From positions 32,001-96,000 of the IMG/VR virus record IMGVR_UViG_3300043395_001986: DNA of 64,000 nt. The stretch is one strand, 5' to 3'. The DNA comes from a virus (lineage: Duplodnaviria; Heunggongvirae; Uroviricota; Caudoviricetes). The first letter of the stretch is position 1; every line of letters begins with the position of its first letter. The notes beneath the pieces were generated by a model. It did not search any database and had not been told where the DNA came from. It saw only the letters and a list, made by a program, of their open reading frames with translations. Shown here piece after piece: positions 27,362 through 47,995 of the stretch. The position numbers were made by a program, and so were the translations under genes.

Positions 27362-28375
27362 ATGCTAGATGTTTTAGTTACAACAGGTGCCGGAAATGTA
27401 CCAATCGGTGGAAGTGATATATGGGTTAATATGTTCTTAAACGAAGTGTTACCATATTTACAAAGTAATGTTGTATTGTATATAGATAACAAACTACCAG
27501 TAGGATTTGATATTAAAAGTTTACCTGTACGCTATGTTGTAACAAATGAAGATGAAAGAATAGTTGATTTAGTTTTAAACAAAGCAGATAGAATACATTT
27601 TCTTCATAACAATTATTTTGAAAGACCTAAATTGTGGAAATATAAACAAAAATTTCACACATATTTTTGTCACGCATATATTCAAGAAATTATAAACACA
27701 AATATAGAATTAGGGCTTGATAAAATTTATTTACCAACAAAAATGGATTTAAATTGGGAACAAAATGTAATTAAAGAATGTAAGAAAGTTGTATGGATTG
27801 GGTGTAATGATGGATTGGTTGAAAAACAACACAAAGATAAATGTATTAGAATACCAAACTACTACCAATTCACAGAAAATAAACCATTTGAATATAAGAA
27901 CGATAAAATAGGATATGCAGCAAGAATTGAAACAAGAAAAGCACCACATTATTTAAGTGGCAAACAGGCTTTAATTTGTTCAAATGCAATGGATTGGGAA
28001 AATTACAAAGAGTATTTTAAAATAAATGATAGGAAAATAAAATTTTACCATTATAATTTGGAAAATCACAAAAATTTCTTTAATTTAGACTTCTCTGTAT
28101 TCCACGCTTGCTACTTAAATGAGCCGTTTGGATATTCTATATTTAACGCAGTAGATTATGGAAAATTACCAATATTACATTCCGATTGGTGTCCAGAATT
28201 AGAGTACAAATATAGAGCAAGTACGAAAGAAGAATTTGATAATGTTTATGAAATTATTAAATTAGATTCGTTTGAAGAAAAAGAAAAAGAGTTTTATAAT
28301 TTAAAATTCTTTTTACAAAGATTCACCAGCAGAGAAAAATGGATTGGAAAAATAGTAAGTGTTTTAAATAAATGA
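27362..28375 (+). CDS. Glycosyltransferase, GT-B fold (GT4-like)
   Basis: N-terminal GGSDIW, GYAARIETRK, EPFGYSIFNAVDYGKLPI. Confidence 0.75.
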   Translation: MLDVLVTTGAGNVPIGGSDIWVNMFLNEVLPYLQSNVVLYIDNKLPVGFDIKSLPVRYVVTNEDERIVDLVLNKADRIHFLHNNYFERPKLWKYKQKFHTYFCHAYIQEIINTNIELGLDKIYLPTKMDLNWEQNVIKECKKVVWIGCNDGLVEKQHKDKCIRIPNYYQFTENKPFEYKNDKIGYAARIETRKAPHYLSGKQALICSNAMDWENYKEYFKINDRKIKFYHYNLENHKNFFNLDFSVFHACYLNEPFGYSIFNAVDYGKLPILHSDWCPELEYKYRASTKEEFDNVYEIIKLDSFEEKEKEFYNLKFFLQRFTSREKWIGKIVSVLNK

Positions 28376-29127
28376 TAACAAATAAAGATTACATTAAAAA
28401 TTATATCACCAATAATTTAGAATTTAATGAGGTTGGTGAAGAAGTGTTAAAAGATGTCCCATATCGTTGGTCACATGGTGCAACAGATGAACATTTAGGC
28501 GATGGACTAATTATATACTCTATTATTCAGTATATGAGAGCAAAAGTATGTGTATGTTTAGGCAGTGGTGGCGGATTTATACCTAGAATTATGACACAGG
28601 CTAGAATTGATTTACATTCTCAAAATATATTAGAAGGTAATAGAGATTATAATTGGGGTGATATTGGAACAACATATGTAGTAGATGCAATGAATGGAAT
28701 TGGTGGTAATGTAAATTGGTTTAAAGAAGAATCTTTCTTTAGAAGAACATTTTATCCAAGAATTATTAATGATACAACTGCAAATGCATTTCATAATTTT
28801 TTTGTATTAAATGATATTAAGATTGATTATTTGCATATTGATGCAGGTCATTCATACGAAAACGTAAAAGAAGATTTTGAATTATATTCTCAATTAATGA
28901 GTGAGAATGGTATTATATCAATTCACGATACAGACCCGAATTACGCGGATAAATACATAGTTACAAATGAAGTAAAAGATAGAGGAGACCACGATGATTG
29001 GAGTGGACCAATTAAATTAGCAAAAGAAATAGATACTGAAAAATGGCAAGTTTTTGACCTATTTAATTTTGGCATTATAAAAAACAAACCAGCTTCAACC
29101 GGATTAACTTTAGTAAGAAAAAAATAA
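28372..29127 (+). CDS. Class I SAM-dependent methyltransferase (Methyltransf_24-like)
   Basis: LGSGGG, IDYLHIDAGHSYENVKEDF, GIISIHD. Confidence 0.85.
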   Translation: MITNKDYIKNYITNNLEFNEVGEEVLKDVPYRWSHGATDEHLGDGLIIYSIIQYMRAKVCVCLGSGGGFIPRIMTQARIDLHSQNILEGNRDYNWGDIGTTYVVDAMNGIGGNVNWFKEESFFRRTFYPRIINDTTANAFHNFFVLNDIKIDYLHIDAGHSYENVKEDFELYSQLMSENGIISIHDTDPNYADKYIVTNEVKDRGDHDDWSGPIKLAKEIDTEKWQVFDLFNFGIIKNKPASTGLTLVRKK

Positions 29128-29981
29128 TGAAACCAAAATTAGTTACTGTCACAGGGCATAGAACAAATACATTATGGCATCAACTAAACCATTATAAAGA
29201 TATGGTTAGTGATATTTTTGTTATTACATATGAAAACGAAGATTCTCCAAAAAATATAAAAGGAGAAGTTGAATATATTTGCAAACAATTTGGAATTACA
29301 CCACATACTGTCAGAACACATAGACCTTTTGATTGGGAATATGTAACACAATTATATAATGAAACAAAAATGTTACACCCAAATGATTGGTGGATTGTAT
29401 CAGATGATGACGAGTTTCAAATATATAATGATTTAGTTGAAAACATAATTGATGAGTGTGAAGAATTTGGATATAAATTTGTAACGGGTGGATTTATAGA
29501 TAGAATTGGGTTTAATGGTGATTTTCCAAAAATAAAAGAGAAAGAAGACATTTGGAAGCAATTTCCAATGGCTGGATTTTTTCGATATCCAATGAGTGGA
29601 GCGTGTCCAAATAAAGTTACCTTAATGAAAGGATGGATAGAACTTACACCTGGACAGCATTATGCAAAAATAGATGGTCAAACAACTTGGAGATGGCAAG
29701 GTTGGAACCACCCACTTCGATATCCAGTAGATAGAAACTTTACGCAAGTGCATCATTTTAAATGGGATTCAACCGTCGTAGATAGATTGCAAGATGTTGC
29801 AAATATTGGTAAAGTTTATGCATTTTCAAAAGAATATAAAGAAATGTATGAAGCATTAAAAGAAAATAATTTTATGCTTGATATTTATGATAAGAAATAT
29901 ATGTTTGAAGAAGTAAATAAAATTGGATATCACTACTATAAAAGTTGGGGTAAACTTTCTAAAATAATTCAATCAATATAA
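29127..29981 (+). CDS. Glycosyltransferase, GT-A fold (GT2-like)
   Basis: LNHY, WWIVSDDDEF (DxD), HHFKW. Confidence 0.7.
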   Translation: MKPKLVTVTGHRTNTLWHQLNHYKDMVSDIFVITYENEDSPKNIKGEVEYICKQFGITPHTVRTHRPFDWEYVTQLYNETKMLHPNDWWIVSDDDEFQIYNDLVENIIDECEEFGYKFVTGGFIDRIGFNGDFPKIKEKEDIWKQFPMAGFFRYPMSGACPNKVTLMKGWIELTPGQHYAKIDGQTTWRWQGWNHPLRYPVDRNFTQVHHFKWDSTVVDRLQDVANIGKVYAFSKEYKEMYEALKENNFMLDIYDKKYMFEEVNKIGYHYYKSWGKLSKIIQSI

Positions 29982-30013
29982 TTTGTTTATTTGAAATAAA
30001 TTCGTTACATTTG
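29982..30013 (+). promoter_or_regulatory. Bacteroidota housekeeping-sigma promoter for the main glycan operon
   Basis: TTTG (29982-85), 20-nt spacer, TACATTTG (30006-13), 4 nt before ATG 30018. Confidence 0.75.
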
Positions 30014-30017
30014 TAAA

Positions 30018-31508
30018 ATGGAAAATAAAAGATTAGGTCTAATAGTTCCGTGGAGAGGAGATTACCAAGACCTTCATAAGTTTTTAGGTCATATAGAATA
30101 TTTCTTAAATAATAAAGAGATAAATTATAAATTCTATATAATTGAACAGGTTGATAAAAAACCTTTCAATTATGGTGCGTTGTGCAATACTGGCTATGAA
30201 TTGGCAAAAGATGAATGTGATTATTTTATTTTCCACAGCCCTTATTTTATTCCAGTTGATGATACATGTGATTATTCTTATTCCACAAAAGTTCAACATC
30301 TATCATCGGTAGTAGATGCATTTGGATATAAAAAACCATATGCAGAATGGATAGGTGGTGCAATAAAATTTACACACGAAACATTTGAAGAAGTAAACGG
30401 ATATTCTGATGAATATTGGGGAATAGGTATGGAAGATGTTGATATGTTGTATAGATTAAATCGTAAAAAATTAGTAAGAAATAAAAAATATTTTAATATT
30501 GATATGCTTAAAGAGCATGATTTATTTGATATAAATGAAATTTCAAATCTAAAAAAAGTAAGTTTAACATATTTTGATTTTGATAAAAAATATAAATCAT
30601 GTATGATTAAATCAACAAAAAATACAAAATATGTTTTTCAAGATAGTTTTACTATTGATATGTTTTTGTATGTAGATAGAAATAAAAACTACGATAGTTT
30701 TATTTTTGGAAAACAAGGTTATAACGCCGGCATCTTTTTTAAAGATAACAAAGCATTGAATTTACAATTATGGAATAGTGATGGTAAGGTATGTGAAGTT
30801 TGGTATGAGAATTTTAATTTATTAGAAAGGTGGATGAAAATAACTATGAAATTTGATTTTGATGCACAACATCTTTGGTTATATGTCGATGGTCTACCAG
30901 TAGCAAGTAATTCATTTAATGGTGAAGTATTTGATTATACAGATAAAGATATTTGGATTGGTAGTTTAGCATTCAATCATCAATTTTCTGGTAAAGTTTC
31001 AAACATATTGGTATTTGACTACGCATTATCGGATTCGGAAATATTAAACTTATATAAACAAAATTATATAAACGAAACCGGTAATATTGTAACGAGAGAA
31101 AAGGCAATTATTGATATTCCATTTTCTAAAAAATATAAAGATTTTTATATTGATATGGGATTATATGAATCGCATGTAAGAGATTTATCCGCAACAAAAG
31201 AAGATAATACAAAAACAGAATTAATATCATTAAATTATGATTATAATTTTCCAGAAGAAACACCTGGAAAATACAAATGTTTAGATGTAGATAGAATGAA
31301 TGACTTCAAAAATATTTGGAGATGGTCTGGTAATGTGGATTTAGAAGAAAACAAACATATATTTTTTAATGATGTACTACCATCAAAAACTTATTTTAAA
31401 AAAGTTGGATTATCATCATTGGAATTTAAAAAAGAAAACGAATTTTATCCAAAAGGAGAAGATGGGATGGATAGAAAAAATGTAGAAATATATCAAATTA
31501 AACTATAA
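30018..31508 (+). CDS. GT7 (beta-1,4-galactosyltransferase-like) with inserted LamG domain; DxD motif lost
   Basis: LIVPWR, PFNYGALCN, FHSPY in place of FHDVD, NGYSDEYWGIGMEDVD; LamG LYVDG..IWIG..FSGKVS. Confidence 0.75.
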   Translation: MENKRLGLIVPWRGDYQDLHKFLGHIEYFLNNKEINYKFYIIEQVDKKPFNYGALCNTGYELAKDECDYFIFHSPYFIPVDDTCDYSYSTKVQHLSSVVDAFGYKKPYAEWIGGAIKFTHETFEEVNGYSDEYWGIGMEDVDMLYRLNRKKLVRNKKYFNIDMLKEHDLFDINEISNLKKVSLTYFDFDKKYKSCMIKSTKNTKYVFQDSFTIDMFLYVDRNKNYDSFIFGKQGYNAGIFFKDNKALNLQLWNSDGKVCEVWYENFNLLERWMKITMKFDFDAQHLWLYVDGLPVASNSFNGEVFDYTDKDIWIGSLAFNHQFSGKVSNILVFDYALSDSEILNLYKQNYINETGNIVTREKAIIDIPFSKKYKDFYIDMGLYESHVRDLSATKEDNTKTELISLNYDYNFPEETPGKYKCLDVDRMNDFKNIWRWSGNVDLEENKHIFFNDVLPSKTYFKKVGLSSLEFKKENEFYPKGEDGMDRKNVEIYQIKL

Positions 31509-31512
31509 AATT

Positions 31513-31806
31513 ATGGCAACATCAAAAAAAGAAACTGAAAAAAATGTAGAATCTACATCAGTAGCATTATTAGAAGAAAGAAAAGTTAAAGCATTGGAAA
31601 AAATAGCCAAATCACTGGATGCATTAACATCTTGGGTTGAAGATATAGATAAGGCAGAATGGAGCGAAAGAATCCAGTATTATTTATATGAGTTCTTAAA
31701 TAAAGACCAATCCAAATCGTATAGACAAGATAAGAATACTAAAACACAAGAAGAAGATACAGAAGAAGCAGAATTTGTAAGACCAACTCGTAGAATAGTT
31801 GAATAA
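31513..31806 (+). CDS. Hypothetical small helical protein
   Basis: 97-aa ORF, TAATG overlap with next gene. Confidence 0.55.
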   Translation: MATSKKETEKNVESTSVALLEERKVKALEKIAKSLDALTSWVEDIDKAEWSERIQYYLYEFLNKDQSKSYRQDKNTKTQEEDTEEAEFVRPTRRIVE

Positions 31807-33254
31807 TGAAATTAGGAGTAATCGTACCATATAGAGATAGAGAAGAACATCTTAATATTTTTAAGAAAGAGTTTTGTGCTTTTTTAGAGCAAAAATCTAT
31901 TCCGTTTGAACTTATCATTGTAGAACAATATGATGATAAACCATTTAATAGAGGAAAGCTTTTAAATATAGGTGCTATGAAGGCATCTGAAATCGGATGT
32001 ACTTATTTAGCATTTCATGATGTTGATATGATACCATTGGAGGCAGATTATTCATTTGAGTTTAAACCAATACATTTGGCAACATCATTTGTTAAAGATG
32101 AAACAAATGAGATAGAAACATTGCATTTTGATGAATATTTTGGAGGAGTAACATTATTTCCAGTAGACCAATTTGAACAAATCAATGGGTATTCAAATGA
32201 ATATTGGGGATGGGGATTTGAAGATGATGATTTACTTTTTAGATGTAAAAAATTTAATTTACCATTAGATAAAAAAACATATGGTAAATCTACATTAAAA
32301 GTAATGAATAGTTTTTCATTTACAGGAGATGCATACATATCAATACCAATTCAACCATTAGCAAATGATACTTTATTTGATTGGAGAAAATCACAGACAG
32401 TTTTAATAACATTCCAGCCAAGTAACATATATTGTGATACATCAAAGAAAAAAGATGATTTTACAGTCTTTTCTATACCAGGATATGATACCTGTATTTC
32501 GTATACTTCCGATAGAAGATACAAAGTAGAAACATGGACAGATAGTAATGAGTGTGTATCTATAAATTCTGAACAAATGGATGAACAATGGGTACAGATT
32601 GCATTTGTTATGGATGTAAAAAGAAAAGAAATTAAATTTTACTTAAATAGTAAATTAATTGGAATTGAAAAAATGCCATCATTCTTTAAAGAGTATGTAA
32701 CAGAAGAACCACATTTTTATTTAGGAGTGGGAGACCCATATAGAGAGAAAGACAAAAACTTTTTTACAGGATTAGTATCAGGATTTTCTGTATTTGATAC
32801 TATTTTAGATGATAAAGAAATTGAGTTTTTATATGAAAACATAAATTCTTTTTCTTTATTAAGTAATTTTAAAAAATATAAAAGTTCTGAACATCTTGCT
32901 GTATATTATGATTTTCAACATTATAAAAATGGAAAAATATTAGATATAAGTGGTAAGGGAAGACATGGTGAAATTACAAATGCTTATTTTAAGCAAACAA
33001 AAGAAGTATTTGGTAAAACAATACCTCTTCCATATAGAAGGATATCTAAATTTAAAAAATTAAATCATTATAATAATGGATGGGAAAGAGGAGGATGGAT
33101 ACAAGAAGAAACCCGTTTAAATCAAATTCGTTTTATGAATGATGTTTCAAACAATATGATAGATATAAGAAAGGATGGATTAAATAGTTGCTTATATAAC
33201 ATAGTAAAACAAGAATCAGTAAATAATATTCATCACATATATACAAGAATATGA
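31806..33254 (+). CDS. GT7 glycosyltransferase with inserted LamG domain
   Basis: VIVPYRDREEHL, FNRGKLLNIG, FHDVD, YFGGV, NGYSNEYWGWGFEDDD, C-terminal DGLNS. Confidence 0.88.
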   Translation: MKLGVIVPYRDREEHLNIFKKEFCAFLEQKSIPFELIIVEQYDDKPFNRGKLLNIGAMKASEIGCTYLAFHDVDMIPLEADYSFEFKPIHLATSFVKDETNEIETLHFDEYFGGVTLFPVDQFEQINGYSNEYWGWGFEDDDLLFRCKKFNLPLDKKTYGKSTLKVMNSFSFTGDAYISIPIQPLANDTLFDWRKSQTVLITFQPSNIYCDTSKKKDDFTVFSIPGYDTCISYTSDRRYKVETWTDSNECVSINSEQMDEQWVQIAFVMDVKRKEIKFYLNSKLIGIEKMPSFFKEYVTEEPHFYLGVGDPYREKDKNFFTGLVSGFSVFDTILDDKEIEFLYENINSFSLLSNFKKYKSSEHLAVYYDFQHYKNGKILDISGKGRHGEITNAYFKQTKEVFGKTIPLPYRRISKFKKLNHYNNGWERGGWIQEETRLNQIRFMNDVSNNMIDIRKDGLNSCLYNIVKQESVNNIHHIYTRI

Positions 33255-34708
33255 AATTAGGCGTATGTGTACCATATAGAAACAGAGAAGAACATTTAGC
33301 AAAATTTTCACCTCATGTTCATGAATTTCTTAAAAAAAGAGGAATAGACCATAAGATTTATTTTGCACACCAATGCGACGATAAATTGTTCAACAGAGGT
33401 AAAATGAAAAATATTGCAGCGGATATTGCATTTAAAGATGGGTGTGATTATATCGTATGGCATGATATTGATATGTTACCAGAAGATGATTCCTGTGATT
33501 ATAGTTACAATCCTGATACTCCAAAACATTTGGCAGTAAGAATATCACAATCAGATTATAACCTCAAATATGAGGAGTATTTTGGTGGCGCCGTATTGTT
33601 TACAAAGGAGCAGGTTATGAAAACCAATGGTTACTCAAATGATTATTGGGATTGGGGTATGGAAGATGATGATTTGTTTTGGAGATGCGTTGTGAACGGA
33701 TACGCTGACCAAAAGTATTTACACGACAAATATGTTCAAAAAGTTTTACATTTTAATGGAAAAAATTCATCAGTAGAAATACCTGTAAGTAGGAATATTA
33801 GGGGATTATGTTCACGTTCTCATACTGTCTCAATTTTAGTAAAAGCAGAACAGCAATTAGATAAGGCTCCATTGTATTTAATTGGTGATGATGAAAGAAG
33901 ATTTGTGGAATATCCTATAATAAGAAGACCTGGATATGATTGGGGATTGAGTTATAATAATAGTAGAGCATATACAACTATGTTATGGAATTATGAAAAG
34001 GAATTTTTATATATGTGGATGAAAAGATACGAAGAACAATGGACATGGGTAACATTGACAGTTGATGATGAAACAAAAGAAATTCGTTTGTATTTAAATG
34101 GAAAGGAAAGTGATAGTAGATTTGGAACAGGTGTGCCATCACCATTAAAATATAATGGATTATTGAAACGATATGCAAGTGAACCATATATATTAGGAAC
34201 AACAAATTCATTAGCAGATTCACATCCTGCAAAATGGTTTAAAGGTTCAATTGCAAAAGTTGCAATGTGGGACAGATGTTTATCAGAAGAAGAAATTCAA
34301 CAAAGTATTTTAGGTGAACCTATTAAAGAAGATTTGCAATTATATTATGATTTTGCAAAATCTAGATTTGGATTAATAAATGATTTAAGTGGAAATGACA
34401 ACTATGGAAATATATTTAATATAACTGAAATAGAAGATGAAATTGCAATTCCATATACAATATTACCACATCGGAGAGATGGTAAATTCTTTTGTTTACC
34501 ACACCAAACAGAAGGATTAATCCAAATAGATGGTGTAGATAAATGGGCTAAAGGAGAAACAACTGCAAGAAATGAAAGAAGATATGTTCTTCAAATGCAA
34601 CAAGGTGAATGGGATTGGAAAAATGATGGGATGAATAACTTAACCTATGAGTTATTATCAATAGAAGATATAGGTAACAATTCAGTAATAATAAATTGTA
34701 AATGCTAA
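33251..34708 (+). CDS. GT7 glycosyltransferase with inserted LamG domain
   Basis: VPYRNREEHL, FNRGKMKN, WHDID, YFGGA, YWDWGMEDDD, DGMNNLTY; LamG LYLNG..FKGSIAKVAMWD..LYYDF..DLSGN. Confidence 0.88.
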   Translation: MKLGVCVPYRNREEHLAKFSPHVHEFLKKRGIDHKIYFAHQCDDKLFNRGKMKNIAADIAFKDGCDYIVWHDIDMLPEDDSCDYSYNPDTPKHLAVRISQSDYNLKYEEYFGGAVLFTKEQVMKTNGYSNDYWDWGMEDDDLFWRCVVNGYADQKYLHDKYVQKVLHFNGKNSSVEIPVSRNIRGLCSRSHTVSILVKAEQQLDKAPLYLIGDDERRFVEYPIIRRPGYDWGLSYNNSRAYTTMLWNYEKEFLYMWMKRYEEQWTWVTLTVDDETKEIRLYLNGKESDSRFGTGVPSPLKYNGLLKRYASEPYILGTTNSLADSHPAKWFKGSIAKVAMWDRCLSEEEIQQSILGEPIKEDLQLYYDFAKSRFGLINDLSGNDNYGNIFNITEIEDEIAIPYTILPHRRDGKFFCLPHQTEGLIQIDGVDKWAKGETTARNERRYVLQMQQGEWDWKNDGMNNLTYELLSIEDIGNNSVIINCKC

Positions 34709-38445: not shown

Positions 38446-39074
38446 TAAAAAATTTAGAAAAATATCCAGTTGTATCTGAAGCTAGATTTACAAAGGATGA
38501 ATTAGTTAATTACGAAAGAATGATTGCTGACCATTGGGAAGCAGGTAGAATTAAAGGACCAGTTCATTTAAGTGGTGGTAATGAAGAACAATTAATTGAA
38601 ATTGGAAAAAGAATTAAAGAAACCGATTGGGTATTTTCAACCTGGCGTTCTCACTATCATGCACTAATCAAAGGTGTATGCCCGGTTTGGTTAGAAGAAG
38701 AAATATTAGCAGGTAGAAGTATTACCATTGTTAGCGAAGAACAAAGATTTTATGCAAGTGCAATTGTAGGTGCAATTATACCAATAGCAACCGGTGTAGC
38801 AATGGTAAACAAACGTGATGGTAAAGATGATAAAGTTTGGTGCTTTGTTGGTGATATGGCATTTGAAACGGGTGGTTTCTATGAAATGCATAAATACGCA
38901 GTAAATTTTGACTTACCAATTGTATTTGTAGTTGAAGATAACGGAGTATCAACAAATACACCAACAGAAGCAACTTGGAATGTTAAAAAAGATATTCCTT
39001 CGGAAAAAGTTATTTGGTATAATTATGAAAAAGTGTGGCCGCACTACGGAACAGGAAAATGGGTAATTTTTTAA
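38442..39074 (+). CDS. Short ThDP-dependent enzyme, E1-alpha-like subunit
   Basis: HLSGGNE, STWRSHYH, AIVG, GD..EDN ThDP-binding motif; only 210 aa. Confidence 0.85.
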   Translation: MIKNLEKYPVVSEARFTKDELVNYERMIADHWEAGRIKGPVHLSGGNEEQLIEIGKRIKETDWVFSTWRSHYHALIKGVCPVWLEEEILAGRSITIVSEEQRFYASAIVGAIIPIATGVAMVNKRDGKDDKVWCFVGDMAFETGGFYEMHKYAVNFDLPIVFVVEDNGVSTNTPTEATWNVKKDIPSEKVIWYNYEKVWPHYGTGKWVIF

Positions 39075-40549: not shown

Positions 40550-41834
40550 ATTATATTACAAAGATTGGTATGATGGAAAATATCCAATACCAAATGGAAC
40601 ATCAAATGATGATATACAAAAAATGAATTTTCATAATTTGGAGTCATTTAATGAATTTAAAAAATATATACACATAAATTTTAATTCAACACGTCACACA
40701 GAATTTGTTGCAAATCAAAATGTAGAAGAAGAAAGACCTGGTTTAATTAAACTTTCTCTTGATAATGAAAGAAAGATTTATCTTACAAACAATCATGAAA
40801 ATTGTCATTTCATTTTATTTTGTGGAAAGGTTAGATATGATAGTTTAGATTTTGAAAAAGTAAAAGAACTTAAAAGTTTAGGAAAGCCATTTTTGTTTAT
40901 TAATATGCACGAAGGTAGTTATGATGATTGGTCTCATAATAAATTAAAAGAGCAAATTGGATATGATAATTGTATATTTGTTTCGGGTAATACAATATAC
41001 GAAAGTTTAGAAACCGATAAAGGAATATGGTTTCCATTTTTCGCATATAGTATGGGACAAGAAATAAAACAATATGAAACAACAACACGTCAGTTTTATT
41101 TAAATGATAATCTAATTAAAATTGGAGAGGTTGATAGGTGGATATCTCAACCAAAAGAAAAAAAATATTATTCATTAAATAAAAGTGCAAATAGAGCACA
41201 TAGAGCAGTTTTATTGTTGTGGTTGTATAAAAATGGATATTTGGATGAAGGATATGTATCTGCTTTATTATGTGAACATATAGATTATTCCGATGAACTA
41301 TTTAAAACAATGAAAGGATATAGGAATATGCGAGCGTTGACTAAAGAAATTTCTGATGAATTTATAAAAATATTACCACTAACATTAGATGCGACAACAC
41401 CAGAAGAAATATCAGAACATGCATCACCAAAGTATAATATTGCAAACTATTATGAAAATACTTGTTTTAATATTGTAACCGAAACAGATTTCTTTTCAAA
41501 AGGATGTAATATAACGGAAAAAATATTTAAACCAATTCTTAATGGACAATTTTTTATACCAATTGGTAATAGGCATTTAGTAAAAAATTTAGAAAAATTA
41601 GGATTTAAAAAGTATACTATTTTGGATTATTCTTTTGATGAATGTGAACATGATTTTGAAAGATTAGATATGGTTTTATCCCAAATAGATAAATTTATGA
41701 AATTATCAAAAGAAGAATTGGTTGAATTAATAAAAAAAGATATAGATATTATTAGAGAAAATCAAAAACATTTCTTATCTTTGAATATTAATGATGGATT
41801 TAAAGTTTTATTTGACAAAATAAATAATTTATGA
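40536..41834 (+). CDS. Putative glycosyltransferase (remote GT10-like), paralogue 2 (TTG start)
   Basis: KKYYSLNK..HR, NIVTET..ITEKIFKPI..FI.IG..GFK. Confidence 0.55.
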   Translation: MQTIKLYYKDWYDGKYPIPNGTSNDDIQKMNFHNLESFNEFKKYIHINFNSTRHTEFVANQNVEEERPGLIKLSLDNERKIYLTNNHENCHFILFCGKVRYDSLDFEKVKELKSLGKPFLFINMHEGSYDDWSHNKLKEQIGYDNCIFVSGNTIYESLETDKGIWFPFFAYSMGQEIKQYETTTRQFYLNDNLIKIGEVDRWISQPKEKKYYSLNKSANRAHRAVLLLWLYKNGYLDEGYVSALLCEHIDYSDELFKTMKGYRNMRALTKEISDEFIKILPLTLDATTPEEISEHASPKYNIANYYENTCFNIVTETDFFSKGCNITEKIFKPILNGQFFIPIGNRHLVKNLEKLGFKKYTILDYSFDECEHDFERLDMVLSQIDKFMKLSKEELVELIKKDIDIIRENQKHFLSLNINDGFKVLFDKINNL

Positions 41835-42769
41835 AAAAGGTTTTAATAACAGGATGCAGTGGATTGGTGGGAACACATTTAGTAAAAAAATGTATAGATT
41901 TAGGATATAAAGTAATTGGTGTAGATATCAATAGAAGTAAAAATCTACCAGATATTGGGTGGCAATTTATACAGGATGATTTAACTAAACCATTTGCAAT
42001 AGAGAGTTTATTTATGAATAATAAATTCGATGCGGTATTTAATACATTTGGTGTAAAAGGTTCACCAATGAGAGCAAAAAATCAACCAGTAGACTTTCTA
42101 TACCCATCATTTAAAATTAATACAGAGATTATCAACCAATGTGCAAAGAATAATATTTGGTTGATATTTGTAAGTTCGGTTGGAGTATATGCACCAGCTG
42201 AAAAGTTTGTAGAAGATAGTGTATGGAAAACACTTCCATCCGAAGCAGATTGGTTTCCATCTTGGAGTAAAAGAATGGGTGAAATATTATTAGAAGCATA
42301 TAAAGTTCAATATGATTATACTAAATGGTCAATAATTAGACCTGCAAATATTTTTGGAGAATATGATGATTTCAGCGGAAAGGGGACAGTTATTGCATCC
42401 ACAATTAAAAAGATTTACGAAGCAGATTCGGATTCAATAGAAGCGTGGGGAGATGGTTCACCAATTAGAGATTTTGTTTACGGCGGTGATGTAGCAGATG
42501 CAATTTTACAACTATATCAAAATGGTAAAAACGAAATTGTAAATTTTGGTGCAGGCGAAGAAATTACAATTAAACAAATGATTGAAACTCTTATTAAAAT
42601 TAGTGGTAAAAATTTATCTATAAATTGGGATACTACAAAACCAAATGGAGACCTTCGTAGACAAATGGATACAACTAAACAAAAAGAAATTAGTTTATTA
42701 CCAAAGTTAGGTTTTGAAAAAGCATTGGAAAAAAGTTATAACTTTTATAAAAAAAATTTAAATAAATAA
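41831..42769 (+). CDS. GDP-L-fucose-synthase-like SDR, non-canonical active site
   Basis: TGCSGLVG, RPANIFG, WGDGSPIRDFVY, WDTTKPNG; PSWSK in place of YxxxK. Confidence 0.8.
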   Translation: MKKVLITGCSGLVGTHLVKKCIDLGYKVIGVDINRSKNLPDIGWQFIQDDLTKPFAIESLFMNNKFDAVFNTFGVKGSPMRAKNQPVDFLYPSFKINTEIINQCAKNNIWLIFVSSVGVYAPAEKFVEDSVWKTLPSEADWFPSWSKRMGEILLEAYKVQYDYTKWSIIRPANIFGEYDDFSGKGTVIASTIKKIYEADSDSIEAWGDGSPIRDFVYGGDVADAILQLYQNGKNEIVNFGAGEEITIKQMIETLIKISGKNLSINWDTTKPNGDLRRQMDTTKQKEISLLPKLGFEKALEKSYNFYKKNLNK

Positions 42770-42783: not shown

Positions 42784-43527
42784 ATGGAAATTTTAGAAAA
42801 AGGATTTTCTGTAAGAAATATAAAAGATGTTTTATCAGAAGAAATGATTAATTATTTAATACAACTTACTGATATTTTTCCATTTGTAGAAAATAATAAA
42901 GAAGAAATTTTAAGAAAAAGAGTTAGTTCAAATTATTCGGAAAGAAGTGCAGATGATACATATGATTATAAGGAAGGTGTAGAAAAACAACAATATCTTT
43001 TTAATAATGCATATCACATTTCTCAAGCCTGGTCTTTTTTAAAACCATTTGAAATGTTCAAAGAAGCAGGAAAAGATGGAAGATTTGTAACAGAATTTGG
43101 AAACAACCTACAAAAAATATCAGAAGATTTAATTAAATTTGAATATCCAAATTTTGATATAAACCCACAGGATGTTAGAAGTAGAGGAGGTTTAACTTAT
43201 TATGAAGATGGTGATTTTATAGAAATGCACGCCGATGGTAAAAATGAAACTCGTCTTTGTGTTATTTTATTATATCTAAACAAAGATTGGAATAGTGAGT
43301 GTGGTGGAGAATTGGTATTAGAAGATTCTGGACATAATAAAATAGCAGTAGTTCCACCTAAATTTGGTGATTATGTTATTCTAGATTTTGTTCAAAATAA
43401 TGTAAGACATGCAGTTAATCATATTAAGAATGGGTTTAAAAGATTTACCTTTGCTCATTTTATCGAATTAAGAGAAAATGAAAGGTCAAATTGTTGGAAC
43501 GAATTCAAAAAAATAAAAGTAATATAA
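42784..43527 (+). CDS. 2OG-Fe(II) oxygenase (prolyl-4-hydroxylase/EGL-9 type)
   Basis: HAD, LLYLNKDW..GGEL, HAV, KR. Confidence 0.85.
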   Translation: MEILEKGFSVRNIKDVLSEEMINYLIQLTDIFPFVENNKEEILRKRVSSNYSERSADDTYDYKEGVEKQQYLFNNAYHISQAWSFLKPFEMFKEAGKDGRFVTEFGNNLQKISEDLIKFEYPNFDINPQDVRSRGGLTYYEDGDFIEMHADGKNETRLCVILLYLNKDWNSECGGELVLEDSGHNKIAVVPPKFGDYVILDFVQNNVRHAVNHIKNGFKRFTFAHFIELRENERSNCWNEFKKIKVI

Positions 43528-44240
43528 TGGAAAACTTTTTTGAAAAAGGATATCATATTGGTAGTATCTACGATATATTAAATGATTCGGAAATAGAACA
43601 ATTAAAAGAAATAAAAAATAAAGTTATAGAACAAAGTAAAGATGATAATAATATATCCGGTAGATACGACCATTCGGGTGGAAATTATGAATCAAATAGA
43701 GTTACGATTGATGAATTAAAACAAAGAGATATAGAAGTTTTTGATAATGATTATACAATTTATCAAAGATGGAGAGAAATAGAAGGCATATATGACCAAA
43801 CTATTCAAGAAGAAATAAACAGATTAACTTTCAAATTATTAAATCATTTATATTCGGAATATGAATTTGAAGAATCTGATTTAAATTTAGGAGGACCATT
43901 TACTTTATATGTAGAAGGTGATATGCAAAATCCACATAGAGATGGTAACGGAGGAAATATATTATGTGCAGTTTTAATTTATTTAAGTAATCCAGAAGAT
44001 TGGAAAGAAGAAAATGGTGGAATGTTATATATAAGAAATAAAGGTGAGGATAAAATGGCAATAGAACCTGTATTTGGAAATTATGTTGTATTGGATATGT
44101 TAAAGAATGATGTAGAGCATGGGGTATCGCATGTAAATGGAGATTTTAAAAGATACGCATCAATACATTTTCCATCGGTATATGAAACAAGCCAAAAATA
44201 TAAAAAATTTATAGAAAACAAAGTTATAATAAAAAAATAA
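43527..44240 (+). CDS. 2OG-Fe(II) oxygenase, tandem paralogue; ATG 43527 preferred
   Basis: HRD, LIYLS..W..GG.L, HGV, KR; TAATG overlap; N-terminus MENFFEKGY parallels MEILEKGF of the upstream copy. Confidence 0.85.
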   Translation: MENFFEKGYHIGSIYDILNDSEIEQLKEIKNKVIEQSKDDNNISGRYDHSGGNYESNRVTIDELKQRDIEVFDNDYTIYQRWREIEGIYDQTIQEEINRLTFKLLNHLYSEYEFEESDLNLGGPFTLYVEGDMQNPHRDGNGGNILCAVLIYLSNPEDWKEENGGMLYIRNKGEDKMAIEPVFGNYVVLDMLKNDVEHGVSHVNGDFKRYASIHFPSVYETSQKYKKFIENKVIIKK

Positions 44241-44241
44241 T

Positions 44242-45219
44242 ATGATAAACAAAGATTCAAAAATCCTAATAACAGGTGGTTCCGGATTAGTAGGACAAAA
44301 TTTAACCAACAGATTATACAGAGAAGGTTATACAAATTTAAGAGTTAATTTACACAGAAGAGGTGTAAGAAAAAAATTAGATGGAGTTGAGTACACTCAC
44401 TTAAATTTAAAAGACCATAATGAATGTTTAGAAGCAACAAAAGGAATTGATGTTGTATTCCATTGCGCAGCAAGTACATCAAACGCAGTTGATACTGTCG
44501 TTGACCCATTGGCACATGTTACACCAAATGTGGCAATGAATAATTTCTTAATTGATGCTAGTTGGAGAAACAAAGTTCAACATTACATCTTCTTATCATC
44601 TAATACAGTCTATCCACCAAAAGGAGATACACCGGTAGTTGAAACGGATTTCTTATTTGATGAACCATATCCTGTATATTTTCCAGTAGGTTGGATGAAA
44701 AGATATGCAGAAGTTCAATGTGAATTATATGCAAAGTATTTGCCTGAAAAAATGAAATGTACAATTATTAGACCTGCAAACTTATATGGGCCACATGATA
44801 AATATGATTTCAATAAATGTCACGTTACTCCTGCAACAATCCGTAAAGTAGCTGATAAGATGAATCCTATTCCAATTTGGGGTGATGGTAGTGAATTGAG
44901 AGATTTATTATATATTGAAGATTTTGTAGAAGCATTACAAATAGTAATGGAAAAAGAAACTGAAGATTTTCAAGTTTATAATATTGGTTCTAACCGAGTT
45001 TATTCTGTATTAGAAGTATTGGAAGCAATGAAAAGAATTGCAAACTTTGATGCACCAACCGAATTTATTAAAGGAAAACCATCAATGATTCCAACTCGTA
45101 AAATTGATTCATTTAAGATTTATGATAATTTGGGATGGCAAGCAACTACTAAATTAGAAGATGGTTTAGCAAACGCATATGAATGGTATTTAGAAAATAA
45201 AGAAGAATTTAAAAATTAA
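44242..45219 (+). CDS. GDP-L-fucose-synthase-like SDR, non-canonical active site
   Basis: TGGSGLVG, RPANLYGPHD, CHVTP, WGDGSELRD; VGWMK in place of YxxxK. Confidence 0.82.
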   Translation: MINKDSKILITGGSGLVGQNLTNRLYREGYTNLRVNLHRRGVRKKLDGVEYTHLNLKDHNECLEATKGIDVVFHCAASTSNAVDTVVDPLAHVTPNVAMNNFLIDASWRNKVQHYIFLSSNTVYPPKGDTPVVETDFLFDEPYPVYFPVGWMKRYAEVQCELYAKYLPEKMKCTIIRPANLYGPHDKYDFNKCHVTPATIRKVADKMNPIPIWGDGSELRDLLYIEDFVEALQIVMEKETEDFQVYNIGSNRVYSVLEVLEAMKRIANFDAPTEFIKGKPSMIPTRKIDSFKIYDNLGWQATTKLEDGLANAYEWYLENKEEFKN

Positions 45220-45222
45220 GTT

Positions 45223-45768
45223 ATGAGCTCACCAGAATATACTCCATATAAAGATGCATTAACAAATGCAATGACGGAATTGGCAAAAAAAGATGATATC
45301 GTTTTTATTGGACAACAAATAGTTTATCCAGGCAATCCTATGAGTACAACATTGGGTAATGTATCTAAAGACCTAATGATTGAAGTTCCTGTTATGGAAG
45401 AATCACAAATGGGTATGAGTTTAGGAATGGCGATGGCAGGTAAATTTGTAGTTACATTTTATCCACGTTGGGATTTTATTATTTGTGCAGCAAATCAATT
45501 AATAAATCATGTTGATAAAATTGGTTTGATGAGTGGCGGAAAATGGAAACCAAATTTATTAATCAGATTAGGCAAGGGTTCTGATAAACCATTAGATCCA
45601 GGACATCAACATAGAGGTAACTATTTTGAAGAGTTTAAATCTATTTGTAAAAATATTGAATTTCACGATTTAAAAACACCTATTGATATTGAATTAGCAT
45701 ACAAATATGCAACAAAAGAAGGTGGTATACATGTATTGGTAGAATATCCTGAATTATATTATGCGTAA
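45223..45768 (+). CDS. Short ThDP-dependent enzyme, E1-beta-like pyrimidine-binding subunit
   Basis: YKDAL..AM, VFIGQ, PVMEESQMG...GMAM.G, DF..A.NQ..N, GHQH; lacks the C-terminal domain (181 aa). Confidence 0.82.
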   Translation: MSSPEYTPYKDALTNAMTELAKKDDIVFIGQQIVYPGNPMSTTLGNVSKDLMIEVPVMEESQMGMSLGMAMAGKFVVTFYPRWDFIICAANQLINHVDKIGLMSGGKWKPNLLIRLGKGSDKPLDPGHQHRGNYFEEFKSICKNIEFHDLKTPIDIELAYKYATKEGGIHVLVEYPELYYA

Positions 45769-47104
45769 TTTTGATAGACTTTATTTAGTATATGATAACT
45801 GGAACATAAATGGATTCATTCCAAATTGTGTTGAAAAGGAAGTGTTTCAAAAAATAGATGAAACAATACACACAATAGGAAATGGATTAGAAAATTTTTT
45901 AGGTAGAGAATTTCCACCAGAAAAATTTAATACATGGACAAACTATTGTGGGTTTAAAAAAACACACCAACAATTAGTAGATTTTGTTCCATATTATTAT
46001 GCATCAACCGGTGCATGTAATCATTGGTTTTATGCAATAGAACCATGGGGGCATTGGTCTTATTCTATTTTTGAATCAAATGTATTTAATAAAATAGATA
46101 ATAAAATAAAGAATAATATAAACAATGGAAATGCTACTTTGATAATTAATTATTCACATGAAGGAAATGTTAGTGATTTTTTCATAGATAGTATAATTAG
46201 AAAGTTGAAAGAAAGACAAATAGATTTACGAAATGTATTGATTATCGTAAATGATTTTGATATTGATAATAAAATAAAAAAATATAAAAGTGAAAGAGGA
46301 AGCGGATTATTATCCGAAAGATACTTTCCAACATTTTTTAATTTTTCTTGGTATTTACTAAATAGTTCAGAATATTACATTGAAACATCAAAATACATTT
46401 TATCAAAAGATAACATTCAAAAAAAAGATATTAAGTTTTTATCATATAATAAAAATATGTCTCAACATAGAATAATGTATTTGATGGAACAATATGAAAA
46501 ACTAAAGGATAATTCTTTAATTAGTTTTGATAAAACATTGTTAAGCAATTTATGTAAAAGATGGTTAGATGAAGAAGCGAGTGATGAAATAAAAGAAAAA
46601 TATAAAAATTTTAAAGAAAGAGAGGTGTTGGATATAACCGATATGAATAATGTTCATGGCTATGGTTGTGATGTGTTAGAGCATTATGATAAAACATTAA
46701 TTAATATTACAACAGAAACTTCATTTTTTGATGAAGCAAATTATATAAGTGAAAAAATTTGGAAACCAATTTGGTATGGGCAACCTTTTATTTTAATCGG
46801 AAGACCTGGTACATTAAAATATCTCCGTTCTTTAGGATTTAAAACATTTGGTTGGTTAATAAATGAAAGATATGATGACATTGAAGATAACGATAAAAGA
46901 TTTACTTTATTAATGAATGAAATTGACAGATTAAATTCAATGGATATAGAAGAAATCAAAAACTCAATATCAATAAATTTTTTTGATTTAGAACATAATA
47001 GAAAATTATTAGAAAAAATTGGAAAAGAACGTGATAGTTATGAGTACAAACTTTATAAAAAAATTAAAAATTATAAAAATGAAAAAGATTTTAATGTATT
47101 TTAA
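45761..47104 (+). CDS. Putative glycosyltransferase (remote GT10-like), paralogue 3
   Basis: KFLSYNK..HR, NITTET..YISEKIWKPI..PFILIG..GFKTF..INERYD. Confidence 0.55.
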   Translation: MRNFDRLYLVYDNWNINGFIPNCVEKEVFQKIDETIHTIGNGLENFLGREFPPEKFNTWTNYCGFKKTHQQLVDFVPYYYASTGACNHWFYAIEPWGHWSYSIFESNVFNKIDNKIKNNINNGNATLIINYSHEGNVSDFFIDSIIRKLKERQIDLRNVLIIVNDFDIDNKIKKYKSERGSGLLSERYFPTFFNFSWYLLNSSEYYIETSKYILSKDNIQKKDIKFLSYNKNMSQHRIMYLMEQYEKLKDNSLISFDKTLLSNLCKRWLDEEASDEIKEKYKNFKEREVLDITDMNNVHGYGCDVLEHYDKTLINITTETSFFDEANYISEKIWKPIWYGQPFILIGRPGTLKYLRSLGFKTFGWLINERYDDIEDNDKRFTLLMNEIDRLNSMDIEEIKNSISINFFDLEHNRKLLEKIGKERDSYEYKLYKKIKNYKNEKDFNVF

Positions 47105-47198
47105 AAAATTATACAAAGAATATAAATTAAGAAAAGAGTTCAAAAAGAAAATAAAAGAGCTTCGCAAAAGAGACCCATTTATTTATAAGAATATGTAA
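47079..47198 (+). CDS. 39-aa basic micro-protein, not in the ORF track
   Basis: MKKILMYFKKLYKEYKLRKEFKKKIKELRKRDPFIYKNM; fills the gap, stop is 2 nt before the next ATG. Confidence 0.65.
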   Translation: MKKILMYFKKLYKEYKLRKEFKKKIKELRKRDPFIYKNM

Positions 47199-47200
47199 TT

Positions 47201-47995
47201 ATGAATGTATTTCTTTTTTTAGGGTGTTCTTTTACGTGGGGTGAAGGATTGCAATATTATTCTGAACTACCATCTGTTATATTTCATACACATCATATAT
47301 TTGATAGTAGAGAAATAACATACCCACAATATCAATTTATTAAAAAAAATAGATTTGCAAGATTAGTTGCGGATAGATTAAATGGTATAGAAATAGTAAC
47401 TGCGGTAAATGGTGGAAATCATACTACAATGACAAATATGCTATTTAGACCAACTGAATTTATACCAGATTACATAAACGGAGACCCTAAAAATTATAGA
47501 AAAGAATCATTTTTTAATAAAAATGAAATAACACATATTGTAATCCAATTTACAGATGTATATAGAGATAACTTTGAAAGTTGTGGAGCAAGCATCAAAT
47601 GGAATAGACCTGCGCAGCATCAGTACTGCATAGAAAAAGGAATTAGTACAGAAGAATTTGAAAAAGACGGTATCAGATATATTTTAAGAAATTTTAAAAA
47701 AGAATTAGAACCATACATTGAATTAAATGTAAAATTTGCTTTTTTAATGTGGAGACATAAATTTTGGTATGATGTGATATTAGAAGAAGAGTTTGAATTT
47801 TTTAAAAACAATTTAATAGAAATACAACAGAATAATAATATATGTTATTCAATTGATGGTTTAACAAATACTGGAAAGAAATTTACAATACATTCTGATT
47901 TTTGCGAAAAAGGTTATCAATGTGGTGACGCTCATCTTTCATTAGAAGGGCATAAAATAATTGCAGAAAGTATAATTAAGAAGTTTTCTAATTAA
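47201..47995 (+). CDS. SGNH/GDSL-fold esterase/acyltransferase-like protein
   Basis: FLGCSFTWG block I, C-terminal DAHLSLEGH (D..H). Confidence 0.65.
   Translation: MNVFLFLGCSFTWGEGLQYYSELPSVIFHTHHIFDSREITYPQYQFIKKNRFARLVADRLNGIEIVTAVNGGNHTTMTNMLFRPTEFIPDYINGDPKNYRKESFFNKNEITHIVIQFTDVYRDNFESCGASIKWNRPAQHQYCIEKGISTEEFEKDGIRYILRNFKKELEPYIELNVKFAFLMWRHKFWYDVILEEEFEFFKNNLIEIQQNNNICYSIDGLTNTGKKFTIHSDFCEKGYQCGDAHLSLEGHKIIAESIIKKFSN

Follow-up and report, generated by a model that had tools for sequence, protein, structure and literature searches.

What does a tailed phage make with some 20 kb of sugar genes that lie between its tail-fibre gene and its head genes, and to what is the product attached? 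This question is raised by positions 27362–47995 of a 64,000-nt stretch of phage DNA (IMG/VR record IMGVR_UViG_3300043395_001986, Caudoviricetes). The window, by which we mean the whole of this stretch, corresponds to bases 32001–96000 of a 237,307-bp record that CheckV scores as complete (100% estimated); coordinates refer to the window unless marked as full-record. We find that the locus, which we call the island, is a self-contained set of soluble sugar-nucleotide-tailoring enzymes and glycosyltransferases (GTs) extending from the tail fibre to the packaging and head genes. It is a lineage-stable module with a conserved core and a moderately variable distal part and is not hypervariable. 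The island is set apart by its conservation across a lineage, its size, its LamG-nested GT7 enzymes with a dead paralog, and an unnamed GT-B family together with a very abundant twitch radical S-adenosylmethionine (SAM) enzyme. As the acceptor we tentatively propose the phage's own virion proteins, chiefly the tail fibre, a proposal to which we give close to an even chance.

The window contains genes for the large terminase (53455–55059) and the portal (56199–58022), recognized by PHROG and Pfam matches. The terminase shares 55–56% identity with its counterparts in T4-like myophages, namely Microcystis phage Mel-JY01 and the Flavobacterium 'immuto' phages. Every gene in the window is on the + strand. 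Between 27362 and 47995 there are 21 co-oriented + strand open reading frames (ORFs; g1–g21) of 97–504 aa, where the initial annotation had counted 22 genes. The gaps between them range from −40 to +96 nt, most starts and stops overlap, and only 6 nt separate the stop of the fibre gene from the start of g1. The position given in the initial annotation, between tail-fibre and head genes, is confirmed: upstream is a tail fibre with a Peptidase_S74 C-terminus, and downstream are a 1360-aa polyprotein (g22), the terminase and the portal. We take g22 as the downstream boundary, outside the island count; it has homologs in Mel-JY01 and the immuto phages, both of which lack the island. The island does not differ from its surroundings in the window in GC content (24–34%) or GC skew and thus gives no indication of a recent import.

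Eight genes of the island are of glycosyltransferase type: one GT4-like, one weak GT2/GT92-like, three GT7 and three GT10-like GT-B. The earlier tally of up to eight transferases thus stands as a count of genes, with the reservations that g3 is a weak call, g4 appears dead and the GT10 label is plausible only. Among the four LamG domains then listed, three are clear and that of g9 falls under the cut-offs. Pfam and NCBIfam agree with the three nucleoside diphosphate (NDP)-sugar short-chain dehydrogenases/reductases (SDRs), the RmlC-type epimerase, the split thiamine diphosphate (ThDP) enzyme, the methyltransferase, the radical SAM enzyme and the two 2-oxoglutarate (2OG) oxygenases. The SGNH protein (g21) had been named from its GCSFTWGEG motif only and is not upheld by a match in any library. 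The fibre gene and the proximal part of the island are as follows.

23039..27355, + strand: long tail-fibre gene, 1438 aa (Pfam Peptidase_S74, a C-terminal chaperone domain; PHROG tail-fibre families)
27362..28375, + strand: g1, predicted GT-B glycosyltransferase, GT4-like (retaining), core gene (AlphaFold2 (AF2) model, Foldseek)
28372..29127, + strand: g2, class I SAM methyltransferase (Methyltransf_24), core gene (Pfam 44 bits, E 4.5e-11)
29127..29981, + strand: g3, probable GT-A glycosyltransferase (GT2/GT92-like), core gene (sub-cut-off Pfam, ESM-Atlas)
30018..31508, + strand: g4, GT7 with nested LamG, degenerate paralog, probably inactive (Pfam GT7N/GT7C/LamG)
31513..31806, + strand: g5, small helical protein, conserved over a 45-aa core and coupled in translation to g6 (alignment, no family match)
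31806..33254, + strand: g6, GT7 (B4GalT-like) with nested LamG, catalytic motifs intact, core gene (Pfam)
33251..34708, + strand: g7, GT7 (B4GalT-like) with nested LamG, near-invariant catalytic motifs, core gene (Pfam, PDB 6fwu)
34712..36106, + strand: g8, twitch-domain radical SAM enzyme (NF033640 N_Twi_rSAM), core gene (NCBIfam 323 bits against a cut-off of 170)
36100..36936, + strand: g9, free LamG/ConA-like protein, weak call (Laminin_G_3 21.7 bits and Sialidase N-terminal domain 19.5 bits, both under cut-offs)

Relatives of g7 occur on 260 IMG/VR contigs. We fetched 80 of these loci and counted neighbouring genes within a 10-kb flank; denominators of 61–65 are the loci that reach far enough. 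The recurrent order in the 80 loci is g1-g2-g3-(g4)-g5-g6-g7-g8-(g9)-g10-g11-g12-g13 and onward. The six genes g1, g2, g3, g6, g7 and g8 were found in 61–65 of the 61–65 informative loci with the order unchanged (64/65 for each of g1, g2 and g3, 65/65 for g6, and 61/61 for g8, at a mean of 1.5 copies), and g10–g12 were found in 70–87% of loci. Comparison across related phages had been proposed in the initial annotation, and the order proved to be conserved in every informative related contig. A separate search with the N-terminal 436 aa of the tail fibre, which is conserved at 57–70% identity in relatives and always has g1 next to it, returned 39 loci; all of those with enough downstream sequence show the order 405-aa gene, 484-aa gene, SbcCD, fibre, g1, g2, g3 and onward. 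The whole 20 kb recurs in three complete relatives of 238–287 kb with terL 64–67% identical. These keep a g13-like gene, g15, g18, g19 and a g20-like gene, followed by g22, two small genes and terL. The variable features are distal: the number of radical SAM paralogs and of g13/g14/g20-type paralogs, and the presence of g4, g9, g16/g17 and g21.

These data bear on the first alternative to a virion acceptor, namely that the island remodels the host envelope by extending or replacing an O-antigen or capsule repeat linked to undecaprenyl diphosphate (Und-PP), or a lipopolysaccharide core, with the host supplying the priming enzyme, the flippase or ABC exporter and the ligase. Altering the surface in this way would keep out superinfecting phages or prevent progeny from adhering to debris. 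Such a role is the usual interpretation in the literature of GT and NDP-sugar gene clusters beside tail-fibre genes in aquatic T4-like phages, in the passages of PMC7029224 and PMC12801897 available to us. As described there, the 'host recognition cluster' of pelagimyophages and cyanomyophages (P-SSM2 among them) resembles our island in having many transferases and NDP-sugar enzymes beside tail-fibre genes in the structural region; the cyanomyophages S-SCSM2R, S-SCSM1 and P-SSM2 all have GT clusters beside their tail fibres (PMC12801897, in part). Thus, GT clusters beside fibres in aquatic myophages are already published, and the new point is the lineage-wide synteny of a whole island. The passages of PMC7029224 and PMC12801897 describe the host recognition cluster as hypervariable and as modifying host O-chains, unlike the island, which is syntenic across its lineage: the two occupy a similar location, but in the island the order and content of the genes are kept, and relatives differ only in the number of paralogs and in a few distal genes. 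We found no mention of GT7-LamG, radical SAM or g13/g14/g20-type genes in these same passages. O-antigens are strain-specific and the islands taken to modify them are hypervariable, whereas this module keeps its order at 35–95% identity on hundreds of contigs, and the fibre C-termini differ across contigs in which the module is constant. This argues against a host envelope target, which we consider rather unlikely.

In a scan of cellular genome contigs only two contigs of metagenome-assembled genomes (MAGs) carried the module, and both are probably mis-binned phage. One, VHCC01000006.1 (23 kb, g7 58% identity), was assigned, probably in error and because of its composition, to a lake-sample MAG of Candidatus Pelagibacterales; the other sits in an 'Anaeromicropila' MAG. 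The Pelagibacterales-binned contig is a weak hint at the host group.

The three GT7 genes have an unusual architecture. The products of g4, g6 and g7 each have Glyco_transf_7N, Glyco_transf_7C and Laminin_G_3 domains over the Pfam cut-offs. Residues 2–152 of g7 align to human B4GalT1 (PDB 6fwu) with E 2e-32, and similarity resumes at residues 456–472 with the C-terminal DGxNxLTY. The LamG domain is inserted from residue ~160 to ~400, after the WGxEDDD helix and before the metal-binding lid His. Both g6 and g7 carry FNRxK, DxD, YFGG, WGxEDDD, the lid His and DGLNxLxY, and they share this motif set and lid His with animal B4GalT1 and B4GalT7 (GT7; PDB 6fwu, 2ae7, 1tvy, 3lw6 and 4irp). Unlike the animal enzymes, they have a LamG of ~250 aa nested between that helix and the lid, and their catalytic domain is interrupted and has no type II membrane anchor or stem ahead of it; the phage genes also come in triplicate, with one conserved pseudo-enzyme. 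Because the LamG is nested and there is no hydrophobic segment, g6 and g7 are best described as an architectural variant of B4GalT and not as standard GT7 members. We found no paper on this nested architecture.

Comparison of orthologs separates the three copies. In g7, HDIDM, MEDDD and YFGG are identical in 81 of 81 orthologs; CLPH is found in 79 of 81 and its His in all 81. About 79 orthologs of g6 retain HDVDM, FEDDD, the His and DGLN. By contrast, g4 of this phage has HSPYF in place of DxD, FNYGA in place of FNRxK and EDVD in place of EDDD, and it has lost the metal His. All 41 of the g4-type orthologs are degenerate at FNRxK (FNYGK) and EDDD, and g4 is found in 35/65 loci. Since the motifs are kept in g6 and g7 and lost in g4 across orthologs, we read the set as two live enzymes and one conserved pseudo-enzyme, an assignment made from motif conservation.

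The remaining core genes are less uniform in how well they can be named. The g1 product has no hidden Markov model match (Pfam to E 5), and its profile gave no useful match in PDB. Its AF2 model, built from a 10-sequence alignment, has a predicted local distance difference test score (pLDDT) of 90. The best Foldseek neighbours in PDB are tll1591, BshA, MshA, PimA and WaaG (E 1e-10 to 1e-7), and nearly all of the top 25 belong to GT4 or to related retaining GT-B enzymes. A C-terminal motif of the E-x7-E type, NEPFGYSIFEA, is conserved. In its modelled fold, C-terminal motif and closest structures, g1 is therefore a predicted GT4 retaining GT-B enzyme. The presence of WaaG and PimA among these neighbours is a point for the host envelope as target; that of BshA and MshA, which act on small acceptors, favours a different acceptor, to which we return below. 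An ESM-Atlas lead to a T4-type DNA alpha-glucosyltransferase was dropped after the PF11440 search, the PDB profile search and the fold ranking failed to support it.

The methyltransferase g2 is 51–95% identical among relatives. Assignment of g3 to the GT-A glycosyltransferases is weak: Glyco_tranf_2_4 matches at 22.6 bits, under the cut-off, and the named ESM-Atlas clusters near it are GT2/GT92 at 0.97. Searches of g2, g3 and g8 against PDB returned nothing useful. In g5, a core of LEERKVKALEKIANSLDALT.WFEEIDK.EW..R is conserved across 19 sequences, almost invariant between variable tails. The gene stands directly before g6 in about 70 related loci, most of which have −65 to +10 nt between its stop and the g6 start, and it is duplicated in some relatives; there is no family match in Pfam (to E 5), NCBIfam or PHROG. 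The radical SAM enzyme g8 is represented by at least 7881 metagenome clusters, and a search for literature on twitch radical SAM enzymes in sugar pathways found nothing relevant. Some relatives have four or five consecutive g8 paralogs of 20–50% identity, between g6 and g7 in locus L030 and right after g7 in L075 and L077. The free LamG-like g9 occurs in 30/61 loci at ~27% identity.

The distal genes, together with the boundary gene g22, are as follows.

36938..37906, + strand: g10, extended SDR, NDP-sugar epimerase/reductase (GalE-like) (Pfam Epimerase E 1e-38; best NCBIfam GalE)
37909..38445, + strand: g11, RmlC-type NDP-4-keto-6-deoxyhexose 3,5-epimerase (Pfam dTDP_sugar_isom 116 bits)
38442..39074, + strand: g12, pyrophosphate-binding half of a ThDP enzyme, E1 alpha-like, 210 aa (Pfam E1_dh E 1.6e-17, TPP_enzyme_C; NCBIfam pyruvate dehydrogenase (PDH) E1 alpha)
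39035..40549, + strand: g13, predicted GT-B glycosyltransferase, unnamed GT10-like family (AF2 model, alignment A2)
40536..41834, + strand: g14, g13 paralog, predicted GT-B (22% identity to g13; shared invariant E/E-K/G/D/N columns)
41831..42769, + strand: g15, GDP-fucose-synthase-like SDR (Pfam Epimerase E 2.5e-40; NCBIfam GDPFucSynFcl 134 bits, under the cut-off)
42784..43527, + strand: g16, 2OG-Fe(II) oxygenase, P4H/PHD (prolyl hydroxylase)-like (Pfam 2OG-FeII_Oxy_3 E 7e-13)
43491..44240, + strand: g17, 2OG-Fe(II) oxygenase, g16 paralog (Pfam 2OG-FeII_Oxy_3 E 2.6e-8)
44242..45219, + strand: g18, GDP-fucose-synthase-like SDR with a non-canonical catalytic Tyr position (PDB 1e6u GMER E 1.6e-31)
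45223..45768, + strand: g19, pyrimidine-binding half of a ThDP enzyme, E1 beta-like, 181 aa (Pfam Transket_pyr; NCBIfam PDH E1 beta)
45761..47104, + strand: g20, predicted GT-B, the remaining paralog of g13 and g14 (alignment A2, 21% identity to g13)
47201..47995, + strand: g21, 264-aa protein with an N-terminal GCSFTWGEG motif (own promoter-like TATTTATA at 47180)
48013..52095, + strand: g22, 1360-aa polyprotein with an N-terminal HxGH nucleotidyltransferase (Pfam CTP_transf_like, DUF5661)

The family formed by g13, g14 and g20 (alignment A2: 32 sequences, 27% mean column identity) has no match in Pfam, NCBIfam, PHROG or PDB, either by sequence or with the profile of the alignment, which has a family motif E..TEK. 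The AF2 model of g13 (pLDDT 78) has a GT-B fold. Its top VIA-align matches are the alpha1,3-fucosyltransferases of H. pylori and human FUT9, at Z 11.3 and tied with T4 BGT, TarM and SenB. With GT10 enzymes tied in this way, the label 'GT10-like' is plausible and short of proof. In metagenomic members, fusions to NDP-sugar SDR or DegT domains connect the family with sugar-nucleotide chemistry. The g20-like genes stand last before g22 in relatives.

The sugar-tailoring enzymes of the distal part are conserved to different degrees. The SDR g10 has the motifs NSGYG and YGESK. With TIGR01221, g11 scores 111 bits, under the equivalog cut-off, and it is 46–94% identical in relatives; g19 is 61–79% identical in complete relatives. 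When g18 is aligned with E. coli GDP-fucose synthetase, Tyr136 is replaced by Val and Cys109 by Thr, and His179 is kept. Given these two replacements, the chemistry of g18 may differ. Both g15 and g18 are without the usual YxxxK spacing and have instead a W two residues ahead of the Lys; judged by these residues they may form a non-canonical SDR subfamily. Weak PDB matches of g16 are to HIF prolyl hydroxylases and a Dictyostelium P4H. No match to g21 was found in Pfam (to E 5), NCBIfam, PHROGs or PDB, and a homolog of 28% identity is encoded in one of the complete relatives (G003).

No sugar-1-phosphate nucleotidyltransferase (NTP_transferase) was found in the genome, and the TDE dehydratase motif is in none of the three island SDRs; a fourth SDR, at full-record 23518–24228, was not inspected. 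The dTDP-L-rhamnose RmlABCD pathway is incomplete: the RmlC-like g11 is present, and the island could do no more than tailor 4-keto-6-deoxy sugars of host origin. As the genome has no nucleotidyltransferase and the island no TDE-type SDR, UDP-hexoses and NDP-4-keto-6-deoxyhexoses would come mostly from the host. The RmlC-type epimerase, the Fcl-like SDRs and the fucosyltransferase-like GT-B enzymes together point to 6-deoxyhexoses. The same stock of genes (GT4, GT2, fucosyltransferase-like GT-B, RmlC, Fcl-like SDRs and an E1-like ThDP enzyme) is also usual in O-antigen loci, which again fits the host envelope.

To look for membrane components we scanned all island proteins for hydropathy. There are no membrane segments, in agreement with the initial annotation; the top 19-residue Kyte–Doolittle means are 1.91, both of them inside Rossmann or ThDP cores. 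The island also lacks the priming transferase, exporter and polymerase or ligase of a Wzx/Wzy- or ABC-dependent O-antigen or capsule locus. In the whole genome we found just two polytopic + strand ORFs, at full-record 124678–127701 (1007 aa, ~10 segments) and 20570–21661 (363 aa, 5 segments); neither matches the Wzx, Wzy or PGT families, nor has either a meaningful Pfam match. That no phage-encoded membrane component is linked to the island speaks somewhat against envelope remodelling. The initial annotation went further and concluded from the missing flippase, Wzy and undecaprenyl-phosphate transferase that the acceptor is not a lipid. This does not follow, since a phage could borrow the carrier and exporters of its host. 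GTs for O-antigen and capsule are normally soluble or peripheral and act on Und-PP-linked acceptors at the cytoplasmic face. Because soluble transferases are usual for such acceptors, missing membrane proteins do not exclude a host lipid-linked acceptor and are no argument against it. A second glycosyltransferase cluster lies outside the window at full-record 173105–176962, with two GT4 genes (459 and 425 aa), a 194-aa unknown and a GT2 (207 aa); one of the two GT4 genes also matches the 'GT4-conflict' family PF20706.

T4-like phages are the classic case of glycosylated DNA, and a second alternative is that the island places an oligosaccharide on a modified base of the phage genome as a defence against restriction and CRISPR. 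Phage transferases are known to put mono- to trisaccharides on 5-hydroxymethylcytosine (5hmC) or 5-hydroxycytosine (5hoC), and thymidylate-synthase-family enzymes and TET/JBP are the routes to 5hmC, 5-hydroxymethyluracil and 5hoC (bioRxiv 10.1101/2023.12.21.572611; PMC13326640). ESM-Atlas places g1 near the PF11440 AGT cluster (0.97, rank 22), T4 BGT and AGT are among the GT-B structural matches of g1 and g13, and a transferase of Bacillus phage SP-15 is among the viral neighbours of g1. The best structural matches of g1 are nevertheless ordinary GT4 enzymes, not AGT. In the complete 237-kb genome we found no match to the thymidylate-synthase family (PF00303), to TET/JBP (PF12851) or to the AGT family (PF11440); C5-methyltransferases (PF00145) were not searched for. 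The absence of ThyA-like and TET/JBP enzymes makes DNA modification unlikely. The known systems of this type (T4 AGT/BGT; methyltransferase–TET–GT clusters; RB69 and DLP3 with arabosyl-5hoC) are like the island in having GT-B enzymes in T4-like genomes, some with sugar-nucleotide genes, and differ in having enzymes that prepare the acceptor base (a ThyA homolog, or TET together with a methyltransferase), within the searches just given. Eight transferases, LamG domains and the tailoring of branched and deoxy sugars also go far beyond the DNA glycans reported (bioRxiv 10.1101/2023.12.21.572611; PMC13326640). DNA hypermodification, which the initial annotation kept as its alternative, is weakened by these results to a very improbable one.

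For the acceptor that we favour, virion protein, transcription of the island together with the fibre gene is relevant. A motif TATTTATA (fuller form ATATTTATATA) has 13 copies in the window, 8 of which are in the intergenic 3.3% of the sequence (p 1.5e-9), at 9839, 14685, 18091, 47180, 52102, 55065, 58030 and 61149. Six of these eight are 12–30 nt before a gene start, among structural and packaging genes. The T4 late promoter TATAAATA was considered as the late signal and set aside, as it has only four copies in the window, two of them intergenic, and TATTTATA is used instead. We regard TATTTATA as a candidate late promoter of the lineage, replacing the TATAAATA of T4. There is no copy between the fibre gene and g20; one copy precedes g21, and a related ATATTTAT precedes g22. 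A generic scan of the island for sigma-70 promoters and terminators was uninformative, with 124 promoter-like sites against 148 expected. From the 6-nt gap, the overlapping starts and stops and the absence of TATTTATA from the fibre gene to g20, the island is probably co-transcribed with the tail-fibre gene. This arrangement, in what is a lytic-type T4-like phage, is a further point against the host envelope.

Two observations on the surrounding sequence belong here. Upstream of the island we saw a single clear intrinsic terminator, a strong hairpin with a T-run (AACCCAACCCCGTAAGGTTGGGTTTTTTATTT) at ~16575–16615, where the 405-aa gene is followed by the 484-aa gene. The 284-nt gaps at 18086–18371 and 55059–55344 each contain an unlisted small ORF soon after TATTTATA (ATGGCAATTAGT... 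and ATGACAAATTAT...); these ORFs are probably small structural genes of <90 aa.

Several features of the fibre gene and its surroundings support the idea of a phage-encoded acceptor. An island that stays constant beside a fibre whose C-terminal part varies fits such an acceptor. Homologs of the g16/g17 oxygenases lie between SbcCD and the tail-fibre gene in seven relatives (L094, L107–L109, L113, L116 and L122), ~400–1300 nt before the fibre start (~10001 in these loci; 7452 in L094), and this position links the oxygenases to the fibre. We favour a phage-encoded acceptor because of the synteny with the fibre gene, the probable co-transcription and these neighbouring oxygenases. A hint at a protein acceptor is the composition of the fibre, which is 23.6% Ser plus Thr and includes a poly-Ser tract. 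Another hint comes from Mel-JY01, in which a 1226-aa protein is encoded at the equivalent site (PP395634.1, 4750–8430). It is annotated 'methyltransferase FkbM' and has Pfam GT1, a weak TibC_1st and GT9, a combination from which this fusion may be protein heptosyltransferase-like. No GT9/TibC-type protein heptosyltransferase was matched in the present genome.

Other observations weigh against a virion-protein acceptor. Families known only for protein priming are not represented among the eight transferases; GT7, GT10 and GT4 enzymes usually extend sugars, so that the first protein-linked step is without an assigned enzyme. Soluble transferases are equally compatible with lipid-linked host acceptors. 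The late timing of transcription is read from the motif TATTTATA, and the same putative transcription unit includes the SbcCD nuclease gene, which in T4 is not late. Relatives of g7 are absent from 50,697 GenBank phage records, leaving no cultured phage with the module, and we found no paper on it. The virion-protein glycan of the initial annotation is therefore retained in part: the soluble enzyme set, the synteny with the fibre and the probable co-transcription speak for it, and the want of a recognizable protein-priming transferase speaks against it.

The small acceptors of BshA and MshA noted above raise a third alternative, a soluble glycoconjugate in which the sugars are added to a small molecule or to a phage-made peptide, for instance from a ligase–Hint–Cys-peptide module ~15 kb upstream of the window, or remain a free oligosaccharide. 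SenB, LmbT and VldE are among the structural matches of g13, the separate peptide-tailoring module includes a second N_Twi-like radical SAM enzyme, and members of the g13/g14/g20 family are fused to sugar-nucleotide enzymes and not to a structural protein. In all relatives, however, it is the tail-fibre gene, and not the peptide module, to which the island is linked; within the island we saw neither a precursor peptide nor a carrier or exporter, and three LamG lectin-fold domains suggest a macromolecular acceptor. We judge a soluble product to be improbable.

With virion proteins as the acceptor, a model can be proposed in which the island is a lineage-conserved, phage-encoded and wholly cytoplasmic glycan assembly line. 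Nucleotide sugars would be taken from the host, since the phage encodes no sugar-1-phosphate nucleotidyltransferase, and would be tailored by the RmlC-type 3,5-epimerase and three SDR epimerase/reductases, two of them GDP-fucose-synthase-like. The split E1-type ThDP enzyme (g12 and g19) would suit addition of a two-carbon branch to a keto-sugar. By analogy with known branched-sugar pathways, this enzyme points to a two-carbon-branched sugar. Further tailoring would fall to the twitch radical SAM enzyme, the methyltransferase and the two 2OG oxygenases. Assembly would be by seven apparently active glycosyltransferases alongside one dead GT7 copy. A common inner core would be laid by g1, g3, g6 and g7 with the methyltransferase g2 and the radical SAM enzyme g8, the LamG lectin-fold domains of g6 and g7 being nested next to the acceptor lid, and the outer part would be diversified by the variable distal genes (g13, g14, g20, the SDRs, the oxygenases and g21). 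The outer virion proteins, above all the Ser/Thr-rich tail fibre, would be glycosylated in the cytoplasm before or during assembly. Gene content, folds, catalytic motifs, synteny and the lack of membrane parts come from the analysis itself; we infer the donor sugars, the order of action, the late co-transcription and the acceptor, with sugar roles taken from family membership. Taken whole, it is possible, if on the doubtful side of even, that a very abundant, uncultured aquatic T4-like lineage glycosylates its own fibres or outer proteins in the cytoplasm, with a core made by lectin-guided B4GalT enzymes of animal type, a strain-variable outer part, and deoxy, branched and methylated sugars.

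The capsid glycans of chlorovirus PBCV-1 and the fibril glycans of Mimivirus are made by virus-encoded sugar-nucleotide enzymes and soluble transferases, with cytoplasmic assembly and methylated or deoxy sugars. Like the proposed product of the island, they have a conserved core with variable decoration. Unlike it, they belong to eukaryotic giant viruses and use other transferase families, and the only matches of island proteins to giant-virus proteins that we saw are generic GT-B matches; the giant-virus-like glycan of the initial annotation is an analogy only. Among tailed phages, mycobacteriophages O-glycosylate their virions (Freeman et al. 2023, cited in PMC12619734 and PMC12801897) and are like the island in placing soluble phage transferases beside structural genes. 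In the mycobacteriophage system the acceptor is reported to be the phages' own virion proteins and the glycan to be proven by mass spectrometry, whereas the present system is known from its genes alone; it has one to a few transferases in siphophages of Actinobacteria in the first case, against eight transferases with a sugar-tailoring set in a T4-like phage. The 'moraphage' paper, in the passages available (PMC12619734), concerns another lineage and only unnamed core glycosyltransferases.

With 1845 clusters at 90% identity for g7, none of them named, and at least 7881 for g8, the module ranks with the more frequent gene sets that await an explanation in metagenomes of aquatic phages. Whichever the target, the LamG-in-B4GalT enzymes and their conserved dead paralog are a natural experiment on acceptor specificity in GT-A enzymes. 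If the host envelope is the target, this would be the first phage surface-conversion system that is conserved and not hypervariable. If the target is the virion, Gram-negative aquatic tailed phages would join mycobacteriophages and giant viruses as builders of glycan coats. Their virion glycan would then be the equivalent, in viruses of bacteria, of the capsid glycans of chloroviruses, and it would add a determinant of host range, stability or the evasion of grazing and immunity, with consequences for adsorption, for the stability of particles, for grazing and for the carbon pool of marine and fresh waters.

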